The position numbers and the translations under genes were made by a program. A DNA stretch of 64,000 nt from Clostridiales bacterium (lineage in GTDB: Bacteria; Bacillota; Clostridia; Christensenellales; UBA1242): assembly GCA_015055605.1 (NCBI GenBank), contig SVHV01000001.1, forward strand, positions 65,026-129,025, in the 5' to 3' direction. A model generated the notes under the pieces. The model was not told the DNA's origin. It made no database searches and saw nothing but the letters and a program-made list of their open reading frames with translations. How positions within the stretch are numbered: position 1 is the stretch's first letter; the number at the start of each line of letters is the position of its first letter. This document shows positions 5,372-14,474 of this stretch, piece after piece.

Positions 5372-6692
5372 GGGGATTATGAATTTTGATTACAAAAACA
5401 TATTAATAATGGGCTATGGTAAAAGTGGTGAGGCTGTGGAAGAAATTGTGAAAAAACTTCAGGTTGACTACAAAATATACGATGCTAGCAAAAAAATTAC
5501 AGGAGGAAATTATTATTCAACTCTTAGCAAAAAGATAATTAGAGACTTTGATTTACTTGTACTATCTCCTGGGATATCAATCTATAATAAATATGTAGTT
5601 TACGCTGAAAAAATTGGTATCAAAGTTGTGGGAGAACTAGAATTTGGTTACTGGTTTACTTCGTCACCAGTTTTGGCTATCACCGGCACTAATGGGAAGA
5701 CTACAACTACTAGGCTTTTAAATGAAATTGTTGGAACAACTTTTTCGTGTGATGCTTTTGGTAATATAGGTAATCCTCTGAGTTCTGGGTATAATAGAGA
5801 ACTAGACTATATGGTTTGTGAGGTTAGCTCATTTCAACTGGAATCAACATATTCTTTTAAACCATATATTTCAGTTATTCTAAATATTGCAGAAGACCAT
5901 ATAGATAGACATAAGACCTTTGAAAACTATATTTGTTGCAAAATGGGGCTACTTAAGAATTGTACGGAAAAATCTCTCGTTGTTCTCAATGCTGATGATA
6001 AGCTCCTAATGGATAGGGGTATCTCTATTAATGCAAAAAAGTATTACATATCTAAGTTTGGAAAAGTGAAGGGAGTGTACTATTTAGATGGAAAAATTTA
6101 TTCTAATATAAGTGGTAATCATCTTTTTTTGGATATGACGGGTTATGATAGGTATTTGCCTATTCTTGATGATTTACTCGCTAGTATTTTAGTGAGTTTG
6201 CTTTTAAAAATAGATAAAGAAAAAATAGTAGAAGCAATAGATAAATTTGAATTATCTCCACATAGACTCGAAAAGGTATGTGAAGATTGTGGGGTAGAGT
6301 ATATTGATGATAGTAAAAGTACAAATATACACAGTACACTCAATGCTTTGGAAAGTACAAAGGGTAATGTTGTATTACTATTAGGTGGAGTAGATAAAAA
6401 ATTAAATTTTGAAAAAATATTTTCTGCCTACGGTAATAAAATTAGTCAGGTTATTGCCTTTGGTGATGCTAGGAAAAAAATACTTAGGAGTGCGAAGAAA
6501 AGTAACTTTGAGAATGTTGTGAGCTATAGATTTTTTTACGATGCAGTAAAGTATGCTTGTGGTATTGCAAAAGAGGGTGAGACGGTGCTACTTTCCCCAG
6601 CCTGTGCGAGTTTTGATGAGTTTAGTAGTTATGCAGAGAGAGGAGATTGTTTTTTAAAAATAATCAAGGAATATGTAAATGCAAAAAACTAG
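5364..6692 (+). CDS. murD: UDP-N-acetylmuramoylalanine--D-glutamate ligase MurD (alternative start ATG 5379)
   Basis: It has the P-loop ITGTNGKTTT, an N-terminal Rossmann-like GYGKSG, and a Mur ligase C-terminal domain. It sits in dcw position. Confidence 0.9.
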   Translation: MCEGIMNFDYKNILIMGYGKSGEAVEEIVKKLQVDYKIYDASKKITGGNYYSTLSKKIIRDFDLLVLSPGISIYNKYVVYAEKIGIKVVGELEFGYWFTSSPVLAITGTNGKTTTTRLLNEIVGTTFSCDAFGNIGNPLSSGYNRELDYMVCEVSSFQLESTYSFKPYISVILNIAEDHIDRHKTFENYICCKMGLLKNCTEKSLVVLNADDKLLMDRGISINAKKYYISKFGKVKGVYYLDGKIYSNISGNHLFLDMTGYDRYLPILDDLLASILVSLLLKIDKEKIVEAIDKFELSPHRLEKVCEDCGVEYIDDSKSTNIHSTLNALESTKGNVVLLLGGVDKKLNFEKIFSAYGNKISQVIAFGDARKKILRSAKKSNFENVVSYRFFYDAVKYACGIAKEGETVLLSPACASFDEFSSYAERGDCFLKIIKEYVNAKN

Positions 6693-7824
6693 AAAATTGA
6701 ATATTGTTTTGATTGTGACTGTAGTTTGTCTATGTTTATTTGGTATACTCATGATTTATAGTGCGAGTTGTTATTCTAGTAATGTTCTCTATGGTGATAG
6801 TTTTCACTTTGTAAAGAAACAATGCTTTGGTTTTTTGATGGGACTGGGGTGTCTAGTTTTTACAGCCCGCTTTGATTATCACAAATATTACAAACTGAGA
6901 TATTGGATAATAGCAACTTCAATTATTTTATTAGTATTGGTTTTTGTGCCTGGTATTGGTATTTCTGCTAATGGTGCTCGGAGATGGATAGGCTTTGGCT
7001 CATTTAACCTGCAGAGTAGTGAGGTTGCTAAATTTGGCTTTGTTATATTTTCTGCTTGTTATTTGTCCAAAAATTATAAGAAAACAAAAACATTTATGGG
7101 TATTCTGCCTATACTGTGTGTAGGAGGATTAATCTGTTTACTCGTAATGTTAGAGCCAAATATGAGTGTGACTATGTGTATAGCAATGGTAATGATTATT
7201 ATGTTGATAATAGGTGGTATGAGGTGGAAACACATTGTTATTCTTGCTATACCAGCATTGGCTCTAGTGGTATTGCTTATAGTCATAGAACCATATCGAT
7301 TAGATAGGCTTATGGCTTTTATTAATCCATGGGCAAATCCCAAAGAAGAGGGCTATCAATTAATACAATCCCTATACTCTCTCGGTGCTGGTGGATTTTT
7401 TGGTGTAGGGCTATTCAATAGTAGACAGAAGTATCTATTTTTACCGTTTAGTGAGAGTGATTTTATCTTTGCTATTATTGGTGAAGAGTTCGGTTTCTTG
7501 GGTTGTGTTATTTTGATTATGGTATACATTTTGATTATATCTATTGGTATCAAAATTGCCATTACTTCGGTAGATAGATTAGGTACATATCTGGCCTCAG
7601 GTATAACATCAGTCATAGCAGTACAGATGCTTATTAATATTGCTGTAGTTACAGGCTCTATTCCTCCGACTGGAATACCACTTCCGTTTATGAGTGCAGG
7701 TGGCACTAGTTTAATGGTGTTTATGGCAGCGATAGGGATACTATGTAATGTGGGGAGGAGTAATCAAGAGAGTGCTAATGGTTTTAATTTATTCAAAATA
7801 AAAAAAATAAAGGAGCATAAATAA
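6679..7824 (+). CDS. ftsW: SEDS-family peptidoglycan glycosyltransferase FtsW/SpoVE
   Basis: It has about 10 TM segments and SEDS motifs (RWIGFGSFNLQSSEVAKF, LPFSESDFIFAIIGEE, IPLPFMSAGGTSL). It follows murD, as spoVE does in B. subtilis. Confidence 0.92.
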   Translation: MQKTRKLNIVLIVTVVCLCLFGILMIYSASCYSSNVLYGDSFHFVKKQCFGFLMGLGCLVFTARFDYHKYYKLRYWIIATSIILLVLVFVPGIGISANGARRWIGFGSFNLQSSEVAKFGFVIFSACYLSKNYKKTKTFMGILPILCVGGLICLLVMLEPNMSVTMCIAMVMIIMLIIGGMRWKHIVILAIPALALVVLLIVIEPYRLDRLMAFINPWANPKEEGYQLIQSLYSLGAGGFFGVGLFNSRQKYLFLPFSESDFIFAIIGEEFGFLGCVILIMVYILIISIGIKIAITSVDRLGTYLASGITSVIAVQMLINIAVVTGSIPPTGIPLPFMSAGGTSLMVFMAAIGILCNVGRSNQESANGFNLFKIKKIKEHK

Positions 7825-7836
7825 TGCTCTTTTTTA
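7813..7836 (+). terminator. Rho-independent terminator overlapping the ftsW stop codon
   Basis: A gagcat / atgctc stem with a 5-nt loop is followed by T6. Confidence 0.6.
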
Positions 7837-7887: not shown

Positions 7888-7916
7888 TTGACAAAGTTGT
7901 TCGGGGGGGGTAAGAT
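7888..7916 (+). promoter_or_regulatory. Sigma-A-type promoter with a G8 tract inside the spacer (TTGACA, 17 nt, TAAGAT)
   Basis: TTGACA lies at 7888-7893. The spacer at 7894-7910 ends in GGGGGGGG (7903-7910). TAAGAT lies at 7911-7916, about 55 nt upstream of the AAGGAG RBS and ATG at 7970. A paralogous copy lies at 11620-11650. Confidence 0.65.
7903..7910 (+). repeat. Homopolymeric G8 tract (candidate slipped-strand contingency repeat)
   Basis: This is a run of eight G in a genome of about one third G+C. It lies between the -35 and -10 elements. Confidence 0.9.
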
Positions 7917-7969
7917 AAAAATGTATAGATGTGTCGAAAAAGGGCACAATATGTATAAGGAGATAATAA

Positions 7970-9694
7970 ATGGCAAAAAACAAAGACAAGAAAAAAATTC
8001 CTTTTAATACCTTTAGAAAAGGTATTACTGCAGGAACTCTAGGTCTTACTATGTTACTAAGTGGAGCAGGAATGCTTGCTGGTTGTGGTGAGAAGGGTGA
8101 CAGAGGTGAAGTTGGTGCTACAGGTAAGAGTGCTTATGAAATTGCAGTGGAATATGGATTTTCTGGCACCGAAGCCGAATGGTTAAACAGCCTAAAAGGT
8201 GCTAACGGAACTTCTAGCTATACACACATAAAATATGCTGATTCAATGCCTGATGAAAATTCGGATATTTTATTAAGTGGAACAGGTGCTTACATTGGTA
8301 TTTATGCAGGGCCAAGTGAAACTGCACCTACTAACTATACCGACTATAGTTGGTATAAAGTTAAGGGTGAAAATCCTAAAATAACCTACGATAAAAATGG
8401 ATACATTGTTGTTGATGGAGTAAAAACAGATGTTTGTTTGTATCCTACCGGGGTTTCTTATCCTTTCAATTTAAATTCAGAAAACTACTCTAGTTATAAA
8501 TACGAATTTAAACAAGCCAATGCTTTAGGTGTTTCTAGCAATATAAGGATTTCACTTTGGTTTGATTACAAATTTAAAGCGGGCACACAATTTAAATGTG
8601 TAGGTGATGATACTAAGTATAAAATGGGTTTACTTATTTCTCGTGATGGTGTTAATTTTGATGCTAGTAAAACCCCTCAAATTGCAGAAGATACTGGTTG
8701 GATTAATAGTTCTTCAGCAACAGGTAATTACAACAAGGGCAGTGGCACAGTAGCACACCCATACGATGCAACAACAAAAACCCTAACTTTAGCCGCAGAT
8801 TCGTATGTAAGAATTGGTTTTGCTACAACAAGTGATGCAGCTATTTCAACATCTAACTTTAACTGGCAAAATTATATTGCAATTACCGGACATTATTTAG
8901 AATATGACAAAATTATAAATGTAACAACTGGCGAAATTCCTACTCAAGTTGGCAATTATGGTATGAATGCAGTTGCACACAGAGGCGCTTCTACTGAAGC
9001 TCCAGAAAACACACTTATTGCATATCAAATTGCAAAAGAGCGTGGCTTTATAATGGCAGAGTGTGATGTAACATTTACTAAAGATGGAGTTGGTGTGTTA
9101 TTACACGATGACACAATTAACAGAACATCTAATGGAACTGGTAATATTAGGGATTTAACTCTTGCCCAAGTTAGACAATACGACTTTGGTAGTTGGAAAG
9201 GTACTGAGTTTGTTGGAACACAAATTCCTACATTTGAAGAATTTATTAGATTATGTAAATATATTGATATGCATCCTTACATTGAAATTAAGAGTGGTTG
9301 TTCACAAGCAGAAGTTGAAAGTTTGGTTGCTACTGTAAGAAAATACGGAATGCTTGATAGAGTTACTTGGATTTCTTTTGAGTTTAGCGCTATACAATAT
9401 GTTAAAAATGTGGATGATACTGCTAGACTTGGTTATTTAGCAGCTCCAATTACAGAACAAAAAATCACAGAATTAAAAACTTTGAGAACCGGTAAAAACG
9501 AAGTGTTCTTTAGTGCTGATAATACAAAAGTAACTACAGCACTTATTGAAAGATGTATTGAAGAAAAAATTCCACTTGAAGTTTGCACTGTTGATAATGT
9601 TGACACCATTACAAACCTACATCCTTACATTACTGGTGTTACAAGTAACGATAAAATTGCTGGTCAGCTTTTATACGACAAATATAAAAAATAA
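7970..9694 (+). CDS. Surface lipoprotein: collagen/tail-fibre-like head module, unknown beta-rich middle domain, and C-terminal glycerophosphodiester phosphodiesterase (GDPD) domain
   Basis: The signal peptide has the lipobox LAGC. A GxxGxxG segment plus SAYEIAVEYGFSGTEAEWLNSLKG follows. The GDPD motifs are AHRGASTEAPENT, ECDVTFTKDGVGVLLHDDTINRTSNGTG, and FEEF...YIEIK. Confidence 0.85.
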   Translation: MAKNKDKKKIPFNTFRKGITAGTLGLTMLLSGAGMLAGCGEKGDRGEVGATGKSAYEIAVEYGFSGTEAEWLNSLKGANGTSSYTHIKYADSMPDENSDILLSGTGAYIGIYAGPSETAPTNYTDYSWYKVKGENPKITYDKNGYIVVDGVKTDVCLYPTGVSYPFNLNSENYSSYKYEFKQANALGVSSNIRISLWFDYKFKAGTQFKCVGDDTKYKMGLLISRDGVNFDASKTPQIAEDTGWINSSSATGNYNKGSGTVAHPYDATTKTLTLAADSYVRIGFATTSDAAISTSNFNWQNYIAITGHYLEYDKIINVTTGEIPTQVGNYGMNAVAHRGASTEAPENTLIAYQIAKERGFIMAECDVTFTKDGVGVLLHDDTINRTSNGTGNIRDLTLAQVRQYDFGSWKGTEFVGTQIPTFEEFIRLCKYIDMHPYIEIKSGCSQAEVESLVATVRKYGMLDRVTWISFEFSAIQYVKNVDDTARLGYLAAPITEQKITELKTLRTGKNEVFFSADNTKVTTALIERCIEEKIPLEVCTVDNVDTITNLHPYITGVTSNDKIAGQLLYDKYKK

Positions 9695-9737
9695 AATTGT
9701 ATGAATAATATAAAAACAAAATAATAGGAGATAAGAT

Positions 9738-11465
9738 ATGTCAAAAGATAAAAATAAAAAACCTTTTAATGTATTAAGTAAAAAAGGTTTAATGACACTT
9801 GCACTTGCTGGTGCTATGGTTGCTAGTCCATTTATGTTTGTAGGTTGTGGTGAAACTGGTCCTAAGGGTGATGCGGGAAGCGTTGGTAAAAGTGCTTATG
9901 AAATAGCTGTAGAAAACGGTTTTACAGGCACAGTTCAGGAGTGGCTAAATAGTTTAAAAGGAACAAGTGGAACTAATGGTTATACTCATATAAAATATGC
10001 AGATTCAATGCCTGATGAAGATGCAGACATTTTAGTATCAGGAACAGGTGCTTACATTGGTATTTACAATGGAACAAGCGAAACAGCACCTACAAGCTAT
10101 ACTGCTTATACATGGCACAAAATTAAAGGTGATACACCAAGTATTGCTTTTGATAGCGAAGGATTTATTATTCTTGATGGTGTAAAAACTAATATTTGTA
10201 TTTATGATGCAGAAATCGAACAAGAAATTGTATATAATGCAGCAACTTATTCTAATTATGAATATGTAAAAAAACAAGGCAATGCTTTAGGATCAGTTGA
10301 TGCTCAGACTGCTAAAAGAACATCTATATGGTATCCTTACAAATTTAAAGAGGGTACAACATTTAAATGTGTAGGGGATGATTCAACTTATAACTACGGT
10401 TTTTCTATTTCTTCCGATGGTGTTAATTTTGATGCAAGAGAAGTTCCTGGTTTAGCAGAAGATACTGGCTGGATTTCTAGCACAACACCTTCAGGAGGCT
10501 TAAACCTTGGAGCTAGTGCAGTTAAACATCAATATAACAAAGATACAAAAACTTTAACTTTAGCTAGAGATTCTTATGTAAGAATTAATTTCAGCACAGC
10601 AGGCCAAACTGGAGAAATTTCACCTAACACTCAAGAATGGGAAAAATATTTTGAAATTAATGGTTCAATTTTAGTTGATTCCGATACAGTTCATATCACA
10701 CCTGATAAATCAGGCGAAGTTAATAGTTATGGTATGAATTCAATTGCCCTTATGGGTTATTCTACCGAAGCTCCGGAAAACACACTTTCTGCAGTTAGAT
10801 TAGCTCATGAAAAAGGCTTTGATATGGTTGCTTGTGATGTTTCATTTACAAGTGACGGTGTTGGTGTACTATTGCATGATGATACAATTGATAGAACTTC
10901 TGATGGAACAGGTAATATTTCAGAAATGACACTTGCCCAAGTTAAAGAATATGACTTTGGTTCTTGGAAGTCTGCTGCTTATGCTGATGAAGAAATTCCT
11001 ACATTTGAAGAATTTATTAAAGTATGTAAATATATGGCAATTCACCCTTACATTCAAGTTAAGAGCAGTGCAACACAAGCAAATATCGAAAGTTTAGTTA
11101 CAACTGTGTTCAGAAGCGGAATGTTAAATAAAGTTACTTGGGTTTCTTCTGATATTGATGTTTTAACAGCTATTAATCAATTAAATGCTAAAGCAAGATT
11201 AGGATATGCAACTGAATCTATTACAACTGATCAAATTGCAGAATTGGAAGCATTAAAAACAGAAACTAACGATGTGTTCTTCTATGCTAATAATGCAAAT
11301 TTAATTGTTTCTCTTGTTGATAGTTGTATTTCTAAATATCTACCAATTGAAGTATATGGGGTTAATGAAGTTTCAGACATTGAAAATTTACACCCTTATA
11401 TTACTGGTGTTGCAAGTAACGACAAAGTTGCTGGACAAATCTTATATGATAAATATATGAAATAA
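9738..11465 (+). CDS. Paralogous surface lipoprotein with a C-terminal GDPD domain, probably co-transcribed with 7970..9694
   Basis: It has the lipobox FVGC and the same head module (SAYEIAVENGFTGTVQEWLNSLKG, YTHIKYADSMPDE). The GDPD motifs are STEAPENT and ACDVSFTSDGVGVLLHDDTIDRTSDGTG. The 43-nt gap upstream contains no promoter or terminator. Confidence 0.85.
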   Translation: MSKDKNKKPFNVLSKKGLMTLALAGAMVASPFMFVGCGETGPKGDAGSVGKSAYEIAVENGFTGTVQEWLNSLKGTSGTNGYTHIKYADSMPDEDADILVSGTGAYIGIYNGTSETAPTSYTAYTWHKIKGDTPSIAFDSEGFIILDGVKTNICIYDAEIEQEIVYNAATYSNYEYVKKQGNALGSVDAQTAKRTSIWYPYKFKEGTTFKCVGDDSTYNYGFSISSDGVNFDAREVPGLAEDTGWISSTTPSGGLNLGASAVKHQYNKDTKTLTLARDSYVRINFSTAGQTGEISPNTQEWEKYFEINGSILVDSDTVHITPDKSGEVNSYGMNSIALMGYSTEAPENTLSAVRLAHEKGFDMVACDVSFTSDGVGVLLHDDTIDRTSDGTGNISEMTLAQVKEYDFGSWKSAAYADEEIPTFEEFIKVCKYMAIHPYIQVKSSATQANIESLVTTVFRSGMLNKVTWVSSDIDVLTAINQLNAKARLGYATESITTDQIAELEALKTETNDVFFYANNANLIVSLVDSCISKYLPIEVYGVNEVSDIENLHPYITGVASNDKVAGQILYDKYMK

Positions 11466-11484
11466 AAATTATAAATATATAAAA

Positions 11485-11513
11485 AGAGTGGGAATTTACT
11501 CCACTCTTTTTTT
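11485..11513 (+). terminator. Rho-independent terminator of the two-gene GDPD lipoprotein unit
   Basis: An agagtgg / ccactct stem is followed by T7. Confidence 0.75.
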
Positions 11514-11540
11514 GTGTTTTTAGTATTAATAGTTGGTATG

Positions 11541-11575
11541 CAACAGGTATGAAGTCTTCCGTTTAGTTTCTGATG
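11541..11575 (+). pseudogene. Degenerate relic resembling the ftsW/spoVE 3' end (out of frame, with a stop)
   Basis: caacaggtat followed by cttccgttta is collinear, with one indel, with the relic at 14307-14388 and with ftsW at 7668-7690. It is too short to be certain. Confidence 0.4.
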
Positions 11576-11619
11576 GAGAAATTGGTCCTTTGATTTTTAT
11601 TTAATATATTAAATAATAT

Positions 11620-11650
11620 TTGACAAAAAGCATCGGGGGGGGGGTAATAT
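11620..11650 (+). promoter_or_regulatory. Paralogous sigma-A-type promoter with a G10 tract in the spacer (TTGACA, 19 nt, TAATAT)
   Basis: TTGACA lies at 11620-11625. The spacer at 11626-11644 ends in G10 (11635-11644). TAATAT lies at 11645-11650. The downstream leader, RBS and first codons are homologous to those of 7888-8000. Confidence 0.65.
11635..11644 (+). repeat. Homopolymeric G10 tract (candidate contingency repeat)
   Basis: This is a run of ten G between the -35 and -10 elements. It is 2 nt longer than the paralogous tract at 7903-7910. Confidence 0.9.
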
Positions 11651-11704
11651 AAAAGTGTATATTAGTGTCTAAATAAGACAAAATATGTATAAAGGAGATA
11701 ATAA

Positions 11705-14170
11705 ATGGCAAAAAACAAAGACAAGAAAACAATCCCTTTCAATGTATTTAGAAAGGGAATAACCGCAGGTGCACTAGGTCTTACTATGTTACTAAGTGGA
11801 GCAGGAATGCTTGCTGGTTGTGGTGAGAAGGGTGACAAAGGTGAAGTTGGTGCTACAGGTAAGAGCGCTTATGAAATTGCTGTAGAAAATGGATTTACTG
11901 GTACAGTTCAAGAGTGGCTAGATAGCCTAAAGGGACAATCTGGTGGTGCAGGTAGTGCAGGTATAGATGGTAAGGGTATTCAGTCTATCACAAAGACTGG
12001 TACAAATGGTCTAGTAGATACATATACAATTACATTTACAGATGGTACATATACTACATTTGAGATTACAAATGGTGCAGAAGGTCCACAAGGCGATCCG
12101 GGACAACCAGGAACTCCAGGACAACCAGGAACTCCGGGTGCTCCAGGACAAAATGGTGCTACTTGGTTAACAGGTACTGCTATTACAGGAACTGGCACAG
12201 GAATCTCTGCAACTATTGCAAATTCAAAAGTTGGCGATTTGTATTTCAACACTAATACTAGCGATATTTATCAATGCACAGCAGAAAACACTTGGAATTG
12301 GATTGCCAATATTAAAGGCGAGAACGGTGAAGATGGTATTTCTGCTTATGTCGGATATGATGGCAACTTGTGGTATGGCACCCAACGAAGTGATTTGCAA
12401 ATTGAAGATTATACCGAATCTGGTGTTTTTGAAAATTCTATTAGAATACCTGGTTCTGAAATGGAAAAATATTTTGAAAGGGAATATGTTAACCTTTCTA
12501 GCAATACAATTGCCTTGATGTCAAATTATATGCCAAATGCAAAACTTACACAGTATAGTGGAGTGAAAGTTAATGAACTTTCTATATATGCAGAAGATGC
12601 AGGTTTATTACAGATAGGTACAGCTAAGGTTGCAGATGTTGTTGACGCTAGATTAAATGGTGTAACTTATTCTTTAACATCTCAATTTTCTTTTAGTGTT
12701 CAAAAAGGATTAAATGATTTAGTTGTTAATATTGAAGTCGCAGAGGATGAAACTTTAGTTGTTGGAGGTAATAACTCGGTTGGATTATATGTGTCAAAAG
12801 GTATAACTAAAACCGGTGTTGAGGGTGATTATACTTTACTTGATCGTAATCAAAATGCTTATGTGTTAGAAATGTCTGATAACATAAAAAACACTTTAGC
12901 TTTAAAAGTAAAAGCAACCCCTTTGGCTGGCATAAAAGCAGTATTCCCAGATTTATTGAATCAAGTAAATCCCGCTATGCAAAATTCTTCATTGCCGGGA
13001 GCGTTGCAAGCTTTCCCATTTCATTATGGAAAAAAAGATTTATTTGCAAATAAGCAAATTGTCAAAATTGGTTTAATTCCAAAAGCCTGTACCGATTTTG
13101 ACAATCCTACTTTCACAGTGTATAAAGTGCGACAAAGTCAAACGACAAATTATACAGATCAAGGCAATTATATTGAAAAGTATACTCTTCAAGTACCAAT
13201 TTCATCTAGTGATGATTATGGTAAATTTGTGTATGTTGATTGTGATATTACAGTTGGCGCAAATGAAAAAATAGTATTTGGTGATCCTAGCGATACTGTC
13301 AATTGGGGGTATTTAAGGGAAGTTGCTCCAGAGTATTCAGTGTCAGAAAATCAAGATCCAAATGCTGCTAGTTACACATGCTTAATTTTTGATATTTATG
13401 AATATTCAGATTTTACTTACGAAGACCATATTAACAAACTAAAAGAAGAAGAGATTAATGCGTCGGGTGTACTTAATGCAAAATATGAGGAATTGGCATC
13501 TATTTTAAAAAATAAAACAATTTCTATTTTAGGAGATAGTATTAGTACTTATAACGAATATTCAGAAGGGTCTGCTGCTCAGACATCAAATAGCACAATT
13601 GGTAGTAACTCATTATTTTATACAGGTGAAAATATTATTTCTGATGTGAATGATACTTGGTGGATGCAACTTATTAATCAAACAGAAATGAAATTGCTAG
13701 TTAATAATTCTTTTTCTGGGGATGAAGTATGGAATCGTGGTCAAACAAGATGTGAACAACTTCATGATGATACAGGAACTAATGCGGGGACAGAACCTGA
13801 TTTTATTGCTGTGTATTTAGGAACAAATGATTTAAATAGAAGTGCAACTGTTGAAGACTTTACAACAAACTATAGAAATATGGTTAATAAAATCCTTACT
13901 AAATATACAAATTCCGAAGTGTTCTTGTTTACATTATTGCCAAATGGACAACCAATAGAAAGACAAGATGCATTTAATAATGCTATTAGAAGTATTGCTG
14001 AAGAATTGAATTGTGGGTTAGTAGACATAAATGCTGAAAGTGGTTTCACATCGAGCAATTTTAGAATTTATACTGCGGATGGTACACATCCAAATAGTTG
14101 GGGTATGGATTTAATTTCTGAGTGTTTTTGGAATGTCTTATACGATAAATATGTAACAAATGCTGATTAA
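11705..14170 (+). CDS. Surface lipoprotein: shared head module, collagen-like GXY tract, large unknown middle region, and C-terminal SGNH/GDSL hydrolase domain
   Basis: The first ~60 aa are nearly identical to the 7970 product (lipobox LAGC). The collagen tract reads GPQGDPGQPGTPGQPGTPGAPGQNG. The SGNH blocks are ILGDSIS (I), LGTNDL (III) and DGTHPN (V). Confidence 0.85.
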   Translation: MAKNKDKKTIPFNVFRKGITAGALGLTMLLSGAGMLAGCGEKGDKGEVGATGKSAYEIAVENGFTGTVQEWLDSLKGQSGGAGSAGIDGKGIQSITKTGTNGLVDTYTITFTDGTYTTFEITNGAEGPQGDPGQPGTPGQPGTPGAPGQNGATWLTGTAITGTGTGISATIANSKVGDLYFNTNTSDIYQCTAENTWNWIANIKGENGEDGISAYVGYDGNLWYGTQRSDLQIEDYTESGVFENSIRIPGSEMEKYFEREYVNLSSNTIALMSNYMPNAKLTQYSGVKVNELSIYAEDAGLLQIGTAKVADVVDARLNGVTYSLTSQFSFSVQKGLNDLVVNIEVAEDETLVVGGNNSVGLYVSKGITKTGVEGDYTLLDRNQNAYVLEMSDNIKNTLALKVKATPLAGIKAVFPDLLNQVNPAMQNSSLPGALQAFPFHYGKKDLFANKQIVKIGLIPKACTDFDNPTFTVYKVRQSQTTNYTDQGNYIEKYTLQVPISSSDDYGKFVYVDCDITVGANEKIVFGDPSDTVNWGYLREVAPEYSVSENQDPNAASYTCLIFDIYEYSDFTYEDHINKLKEEEINASGVLNAKYEELASILKNKTISILGDSISTYNEYSEGSAAQTSNSTIGSNSLFYTGENIISDVNDTWWMQLINQTEMKLLVNNSFSGDEVWNRGQTRCEQLHDDTGTNAGTEPDFIAVYLGTNDLNRSATVEDFTTNYRNMVNKILTKYTNSEVFLFTLLPNGQPIERQDAFNNAIRSIAEELNCGLVDINAESGFTSSNFRIYTADGTHPNSWGMDLISECFWNVLYDKYVTNAD
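12101..12136 (+). repeat. Perfect-but-one 18-nt tandem duplication encoding GQPGTP x2 within the collagen-like tract
   Basis: ggacaaccaggaactcca is followed directly by ggacaaccaggaactccg. Confidence 0.85.
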
Positions 14171-14183
14171 TATTAAATAATTA

Positions 14184-14212
14184 AGAGTGGAAAATTATTC
14201 CACTCTTTTTTA
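14184..14212 (+). terminator. Rho-independent terminator after the SGNH lipoprotein gene
   Basis: An agagtgg / ccactct stem with a 9-nt loop is followed by T6. Confidence 0.75.
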
Positions 14213-14306
14213 TATCAAAAATTGAAATGGCAGTTAGTACCTGTCTTTTTTGAATATAATTAAAGTGAAAAACAATTATATTATATTTTATAATGCAATA
14301 ACTGAT

Positions 14307-14388
14307 GTTAACAGGTAGCATTCCACCAACAGGTATACCACTTCCGTTTATGAGTGCAGGAGGAACTATCCTTATGGTCTTTATGGTT
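14307..14388 (+). pseudogene. Orphan fragment of an ftsW/spoVE 3' end (would encode TGSIPPTGIPLPFMSAGGTILMVFM)
   Basis: It aligns with ftsW 7648-7730. A 26-nt identical core (ataccacttccgtttatgagtgcagg; 7675-7700 = 14335-14360) is flanked mostly by synonymous-type differences. No upstream part of the gene is present. Confidence 0.8.
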
Positions 14389-14412
14389 AAGAGTGGTTTT
14401 GAAAGAGGGGTA

Positions 14413-14441
14413 TTGAAATTGGTGTTTATTTGTGTTATAAT
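14413..14441 (+). promoter_or_regulatory. Sigma-A-type promoter for the first orphan gene (TTGAAA, 17 nt, extended TGtTATAAT)
   Basis: TTGAAA lies at 14413-14418 and TATAAT at 14436-14441, preceded by TG. This places the TSS downstream of the ORF-track start at 14430 and so supports ATG 14475. Confidence 0.6.
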
Positions 14442-14474
14442 TTAATCACTCAAATTATGGAGGGGTTAAAAATT

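Follow-up and report, generated by a model that had tools for sequence, protein, structure and literature searches.

Can a promoter with ten consecutive G's in the spacer of its -35 and -10 boxes switch the gene behind it on and off and, if so, which state does the length found here represent? The question arises in a stretch of 64,000 nucleotides (hereafter "the window," that is, the whole stretch of DNA that was analyzed) from an uncultured, spore-forming, low-GC lineage of Clostridia, whose closest species representatives are MAGs from ruminant and other gut samples. Our reading, to which we give a probability of about two in three, is that the promoter, here called P2, is a slipped-strand phase-variable sigma-A promoter, stochastic and independent of its paralogue P1, in which G10 would most likely mean low or OFF and G8-G9 would mean ON.

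P2 lies on the forward strand, and its layout is, to the nucleotide, the one that a first-pass annotation had given: the -35 hexamer TTGACA at 11620-11625, the non-G part of the spacer (aaaagcatc) at 11626-11634, the G10 homopolymer at 11635-11644, and the -10 hexamer TAATAT at 11645-11650. The hypermutable element is thus part of the promoter core, between TTGACA and TAATAT, and together with the nine nucleotides before it makes a spacer of 19 nt. A conserved 5' leader follows (11651-11704, forward strand), which contains a small inverted repeat (TGTCT-N5-AGACA) and, at 11692-11699, the ribosome binding site AAGGAGAT; ribosome binding site and start together read AAGGAGATAATAAATG (11692-11707), with the ATG at 11705.

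Chance does not explain such sites. TTGACA-N9-G8 occurs twice in the window versus 0.00 expected (100 dinucleotide shuffles), and the only two runs of at least six G's or C's in the 64 kb, at 32.8% GC, are the tracts of P1 and P2. Set against a sigma-A housekeeping promoter (TTGACA, TAnnnT, 17 ± 1 nt), P2 scores 6/6 and 5/6 in its hexamers and departs from it in its 19-nt spacing; a consensus promoter scan that allows spacers of 16-18 nt detects P1 and misses P2. This mismatch in spacing is the core of the switch model.

The paralogous promoter P1 (7888-7916, forward strand) consists of TTGACA at 7888-7893, aagttgttc, G8 at 7903-7910, and TAAGAT at 7911-7916, with a spacer of 17 nt. From the -35 box to approximately the first 65 codons, the P1 and P2 5' modules are ~89% identical over 265 nt, so the leader, ribosome binding site, and first codons are indeed homologous, as previously stated; beyond this the divergence is complete, and 5' of the -35 box the two are unrelated. 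The accompanying claim, that the copies differ by the kind of change expected from slippage, stands for the tract itself, which is 2 nt longer in P2, but not for the promoter as a whole, as five of the nine non-G spacer positions and one -10 position differ too. Both leaders (7917-7969 and 11651-11704) contain an inverted repeat, GTGTC-N7-GRCAC, nested in ATGTATA...TATGTAT. The consensus energy of this hairpin is only -5 kcal/mol and there is little covariation; it could be a 5' stabilizing hairpin or an operator.

As for the genes, the window holds a dcw cluster for the cell wall and division (mraW, PBP, murE, mraY, murD, and ftsW, with murA, ftsQ, ftsA, and ftsZ downstream), and a block of three lipoprotein genes is placed after ftsW (6679-7824). 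P1 heads two GDPD lipoprotein genes on the forward strand, 7970-9694 and 9738-11465, which are 43 nt apart; in the second, the signal peptide has diverged and a promoter of its own is lacking. P2 heads a forward-strand gene at 11705-14170, the 821-aa product of which has a lipobox, LAGC, with Cys39 (MAKNKDKK...LLSGAGMLAGC, assigned only by a match to the pattern [LVI][ASTVI][GAS]C), repeats of the collagen-like GXY and tail-fibre-like types, and at the C-terminus an SGNH/GDSL hydrolase domain (PF13472, 61 bits against a cut-off of 32.9, residues 650-802). The Pfam domains found in the lipoproteins are GDPD, SGNH, and collagen. PDB relatives of the SGNH domain are 4m8k and 4nrd, and the motifs "SAYEIAV...EWL..LKG" and "TYTITFTDGT" in the 821-aa product are of a type known from phage tail fibres. 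Because 14 contigs carry its ORF intact and in identical form, the SGNH gene is evidently maintained.

Intrinsic terminators are located after ftsW (7809-7833), after the GDPD pair (11481-11511, forward strand, a 12-bp stem and then a T run), and after the SGNH gene (14183-14207, forward strand), and there are therefore two units, one running from P1 through the GDPD pair and one from P2 through the SGNH gene. The middle terminator shields the SGNH gene from read-through and, because the units are separated in this manner, they can switch independently.

Two side observations concern this block. The GDPD domains of both P1-driven genes match, among others, a GP-PDE-domain chain named ORF58 (PDB 9euf/9eul), which we take to be a phage protein, and the N-terminal collagen-like and SAYEIAV modules of these lipoproteins resemble phage tail-fibre modules; on these resemblances, the GDPD surface enzymes may be derived from phage receptor-binding proteins. 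In addition, the SGNH gene is followed by 46 codons left over from the 3' end of ftsW (14305-14445; compare 7690-7760). They repeat the final part of the intact ftsW that lies upstream of P1, so that ftsW and an incomplete copy of it bracket the lipoprotein block, an arrangement reminiscent of an insertion or duplication scar.

Is the tract length variable in nature? Contigs of the same species were recovered through exact-protein look-ups in JGI, ENA, and Logan metagenome assemblies, covering about 14 independent samples. The 18 contig segments obtained match the window at 99.97-100% identity over 2.8-15.8 kb and, away from contig ends, the only indels are single G's in the P1 and P2 tracts. 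There are five of these versus one recurrent and one private SNP in ~140 kb of aligned contigs, again away from the ends. P1 has G8 in nine samples (window included) and G9 in three (ERZ27248314, JGI 3300029705, and JGI 3300022660), and P2 has G10 in 11 samples (window included) and G11 in two (JGI 3300024270 and SRR7031455); G8 or G9 alleles of P2 were not seen in these 13 samples. With such length differences in otherwise identical contigs, the tract is the mutational hotspot that it had been suspected to be.

Three (P1, P2) combinations were observed, (8,10), (9,10), and (8,11), which means that the two tracts vary independently. This, along with the terminators on either side of it, bears out the proposal of the first-pass annotation that the SGNH gene is a unit apart from the GDPD pair. 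The recurrent SNP, 8451 G/A, marks two haplotypes across the samples, and G8 and G9 of P1 are each present on both alleles; as all four gametes are found, the P1 tract change arose more than once. Please note that homopolymer lengths called from short reads are error-prone to some degree, and that several contigs break at the tracts. Five contig ends lie in or adjoin a tract, which fits, weakly, with heterogeneity within samples.

Some of these breaks deserve mention in their own right. The assembly of JGI 3300031555 breaks exactly at 8451, which indicates mixed strains in the samples. Two JGI contigs from different samples (L007/L078 and L079) end just past the P2 tract and are missing T11648, which turns TAATAT into TAAATA. 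Their tail, aaaggttta, is short, unalignable, and absent elsewhere in the window, and these ends may reflect noise where contigs stop or a junction with some other locus.

Related species provide further examples of the promoter. A homologue search with the 124-aa N-terminus yielded only short or fragmentary proteins, and the full-length query was required. In these species, this 5' module introduces lipoproteins that are 633-1044 aa long and have an SGNH or a GDPD domain, and the common leader peptide, MAKNKDKKK[IV]PFN[VT]FRKG..., ends in a lipobox. Five more G-tract promoters were found, all of which keep TTGACA and a -10 box of the TAAGAT or TATACT type. Four have a non-G spacer part of 9 nt, and their runs are G8 (L015, aacttgttc-G8-TAAGAT at a different locus, spacer 17 nt), G9 (L088, aagtcgttc-G9-TAAGAT directly after ftsW as in the window, 18 nt), and twice G10 (L087, aactcgttc-G10-TAAGAT, and L085, aaatgcctc-G10-TAAGAT, both 19 nt). 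The fifth, L071, has 10 nt plus G7 and TATACT, with a spacer of 17 nt. Elsewhere the tract is interrupted (L069/70, gggtgggga, 17 nt) or replaced (L066-68, ttatagatggg, 18 nt); the latter locus is orthologous to L085, and its downstream gene is split into ORFs of 76 and 452 aa.

The L085 locus (8055-10545) combines its G10 promoter with an 801-aa SGNH lipoprotein, and the orthologous site in L066-L068 (3250-3565) is from another population; the switch and its gene may have decayed there. In L088, a single SGNH lipoprotein gene occupies the ftsW site that the three-gene block has in the window.

In L015, L085, L087, and L088 the tract is the sole run of at least six G's in 12-22 kb each. When the homologues are aligned, the -35 box is invariant, TTGACA being the same in every homologous promoter, the -10 box is variable at one position (most have TAAGAT), the leader is for the most part conserved at its start, and differences in length come mainly from the G run. 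The non-G part of the spacer changes its letters yet holds to 9 nt in the G-tract promoters. Such a pattern is characteristic of a conserved promoter with a slippery spacer and identifies TTGACA and TAAGAT/TAATAT as the functional boxes. Spacing in the family centers on 17-18 nt, and P2, at 19-20 nt, is the outlier.

A scan of metagenome contigs with TTGACAAARWKSWTCGGGGGG found unrelated loci only, and no contigs of the window's species. About half of the matches are chance occurrences of G6 in high-GC DNA; the remainder are analogous poly-G promoters, on contigs that include L041, L045, L048, L054/L055, L051/62/63, and L092/L093. Counted as distinct loci of the form TTGACA-N9-Gn-TATNNT in unrelated contigs (24-60% GC), there are about six with G10, four with G9, one each with G11 and G7, and none with G8. 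Many of these promoters precede secreted or surface proteins (DUF285/List-Bact/SLH, SLH, a lipoprotein, and a pilin-like protein), and at some loci the architecture is present twice, with paralogous genes. The excess of G9-G10 could equally reflect a default-OFF rest on the long, still-mutable side or G-tract spacers that work at a nominal 18-19 nt.

Slippage of repeats in promoter spacers is textbook knowledge for Neisseria, Haemophilus, Treponema, and Mycoplasma, and the switches known so far in gut anaerobes are mostly invertible promoters. A full-text literature search brought up no account of a poly-G spacer switch in Clostridia, and absence is not proved thereby. The mechanism is already known; what is new is the host lineage (walled, sporulating gut Clostridia) and the family of enzyme-bearing, collagen-stalked lipoproteins.

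In Treponema pallidum, tp0126 has a poly-G tract between -35 and -10 and is transcribed best at 17 nt, and for tprL a reporter with G8 is active and one with G10 is near background (PMC7864442). The likeness extends to the layout, as tp0126, tprL, and tprE/G/J have 7-11 nt of poly-G in the promoters of surface proteins, with one tract per paralogue (PMC7864442). However, T. pallidum is a pathogenic spirochaete and its proteins in question belong to the outer membrane, whereas here we have lipoprotein-anchored hydrolases in spore-forming, low-GC gut Clostridia, no sequence homology, and an effect on expression that we infer. In N. meningitidis, according to the summary in PMC7864442, the poly-G in the porA spacer sets the -35/-10 distance and so the level of transcription. 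P2 likewise has homopolymeric G in its spacer, but porA is a Gram-negative porin gene with non-optimal states below 17 nt, whereas the resting states here would be longer (18-20 nt).

[quoted passage not shown] P1 and P2 head just such paralogues, with a common promoter, leader, and lipoprotein signal peptide and with mature parts that diverge. The Vlp tract lies within the -35/-10 spacer, as Citti and Wise reportedly described in 1995. The vlp genes switch singly via a poly-A tract in a promoter that is common to all paralogues (PMC10502178); as here, each of these paralogous lipoproteins has a conserved 5' module and a promoter homopolymer, and indels that switch them singly lead to combinatorial surface variation (PMC10502178). 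In contrast, the Vlp proteins are small, repetitive coat proteins under poly-A control, and those described here are large GDPD/SGNH enzymes on collagen-like stalks, under poly-G, in a walled, sporulating host. The two systems are non-homologous, and no Vlp-related family is among the Pfam matches. The invertons of Clostridioides difficile and Bacteroides also bring about phase variation of surface or signaling genes in gut anaerobes (PMC11868660), but they do so by site-specific inversion at inverted repeats, whereas here there are no convincing repeats and no inverted orientation was seen.

How, then, would P2 work? We infer slippage as the mechanism, an effect on transcription, and the identity of the ON length. 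Slipped-strand mispairing at replication would add or remove single G's in the P2 tract, and each change would reset the distance between TTGACA and TAATAT, to 17 nt with G8, 18 nt with G9, 19 nt with G10, and 20 nt with G11. This distance would set the contact of RNA polymerase with both boxes and hence the strength of the promoter. The predicted outcome is heritable, reversible, and stochastic switching of the SGNH-hydrolase surface lipoprotein, which would proceed apart from the P1-driven GDPD pair through the strong upstream terminator and a tract of its own.

At 19-20 nt, P2 is most likely low or OFF, from what is known of sigma-70/sigma-A spacing, by analogy with T. pallidum and N. meningitidis, and because relatives that lack an intact tract have spacers of 17-18 nt and the majority of P1 alleles are G8 (17 nt). 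Running counter to this assignment, P2 was seen only as G10 or G11, and G9 and G10 are the commonest consensus lengths among the homologues and analogues of this promoter. In addition, a partial extended -10 element could be formed by the G's at -14 and -13, which would lessen the dependence on spacing.

Poly(dG) tracts are under-wound and A-like, and a hypermutable tract might be a rheostat or have a shifted optimum, so that G10, at a nominal 19 nt, would be an expressing and perhaps preferred length and the window would not be OFF. We consider this unlikely, although the skew toward long tracts deserves weight. It would agree with the dominance of G9-G10 in the consensus (three of the seven uninterrupted tracts of the family are G10), with the prevalence of G10 and G9 and the lack of G8 among the unrelated loci, and with an 821-aa ORF that is intact everywhere. 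Exact-length scans of viral contigs lean the same way, with one match for G8, two for G9, three for G10, and none for G11, whereas chance favors shorter runs, these counts being too few for a length statistic. However, the relatives without a slippery tract are at 17-18 nt and not 19, P1 is G8 in most samples, and contingency loci usually default to OFF on the long, still-mutable side; furthermore, tested poly-G spacers peak at 17 nt, with G10 near background and G8 active (PMC7864442).

It is improbable that the G tract is no control element at all, its length changes being nearly neutral and the gene at 11705 being driven by some other promoter or by a regulator of the leader repeat. Weak matches at 11590 (TTGATT-16-AATAAT) and 11675 (AAGACA-16-GATAAT), each 9/12, do exist in this AT-rich DNA, but the latter overlaps the ribosome binding site and its -35 is not conserved in P1, and promoter-like matches, at 34 versus 33.2 in shuffles, are not in excess. 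The alternative promoters in 11512-11704 were accordingly set aside as weak and not conserved. The leader inverted repeat is conserved, and could be read in favor of such a regulator; against this, TTGACA and TAAGAT are invariant or nearly so among homologues, with no conservation 5' of the -35 box, and the keeping of a G8-G11 run at this exact site across several species in a 33% GC genome needs selection. Very improbable indeed is an artefact of sequencing or assembly, or an invertible promoter. Homopolymers are error-prone and contigs do end at the tracts, but tracts are present in every JGI, ENA, and Logan contig and in five related species, and the variant lengths recur across independent samples on two haplotypes. 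Imperfect, AT-rich inverted repeats flank both promoters; these are weak and at chance level for such DNA, and every contig has the promoter in the same orientation, so that an inverton was rejected.

If the switch that we propose is real, uncultured Clostridia of the ruminant gut hedge their bets in displaying surface hydrolases, namely a glycerophosphodiesterase pair and an SGNH esterase. Both types are carried on phage-tail-fibre-like, collagen-like stalks, which are plausible targets of phages or of host immunity. The lengths of tracts in metagenomes could then record the ON/OFF states of populations. On the practical side, G tracts break assemblies and shift gene calls, and annotation pipelines may mishandle such loci.

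A broader proposal is offered tentatively, at rather less than even odds. It is that of a Vlp-like combinatorial system in gut Clostridia, in which a portable poly-G cassette (promoter, leader, signal peptide, and collagen-like stalk) would be placed on GDPD, SGNH, and other enzymes at several chromosomal sites, toggled by slippage and rewired by recombination (compare the fusion below). TTGACA-N9-G(9-10)-TATNNT would then be a recurrent default-OFF design for surface and S-layer-anchored proteins and pilins in many uncultured bacteria.

One contig points to recombination as a second route of variation. L006 (ERZ27248370) joins ftsW, P1 (G8), and the 7970 gene up to about codon 23 straight to the SGNH body (L006 9146-9700). 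The crossover lies within a 64-nt run on the forward strand that the two modules share without a mismatch (8039-8102 in the P1 gene and 11774-11837), and the 3.7-kb GDPD unit is deleted. Outside the swapped 5' module, L006 is 100% identical to the window; a divergent strain was ruled out by position-by-position comparison, in which all mismatches fall inside that module. The GDPD pair of the same sample is found on a separate 3.66-kb contig (L080). Either L006 is a true deletion, produced by recombination of the 5' modules and present alongside the full locus, or it is a chimera of the assembly; the k=141 contig and the separate L080 favor a real mixture. If real, the fusion brings the SGNH gene under a 17-nt promoter.

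Finally, collagen-like sequence is also present well away from this block. A short ORF on the forward strand, at about 33900-34100 of the window, has a Cys-rich N-terminus and then a long collagen-like GXY run (GPAGPTGPVGPAGPPGATGPEGPAG), and resembles exosporium proteins of the BclA type.
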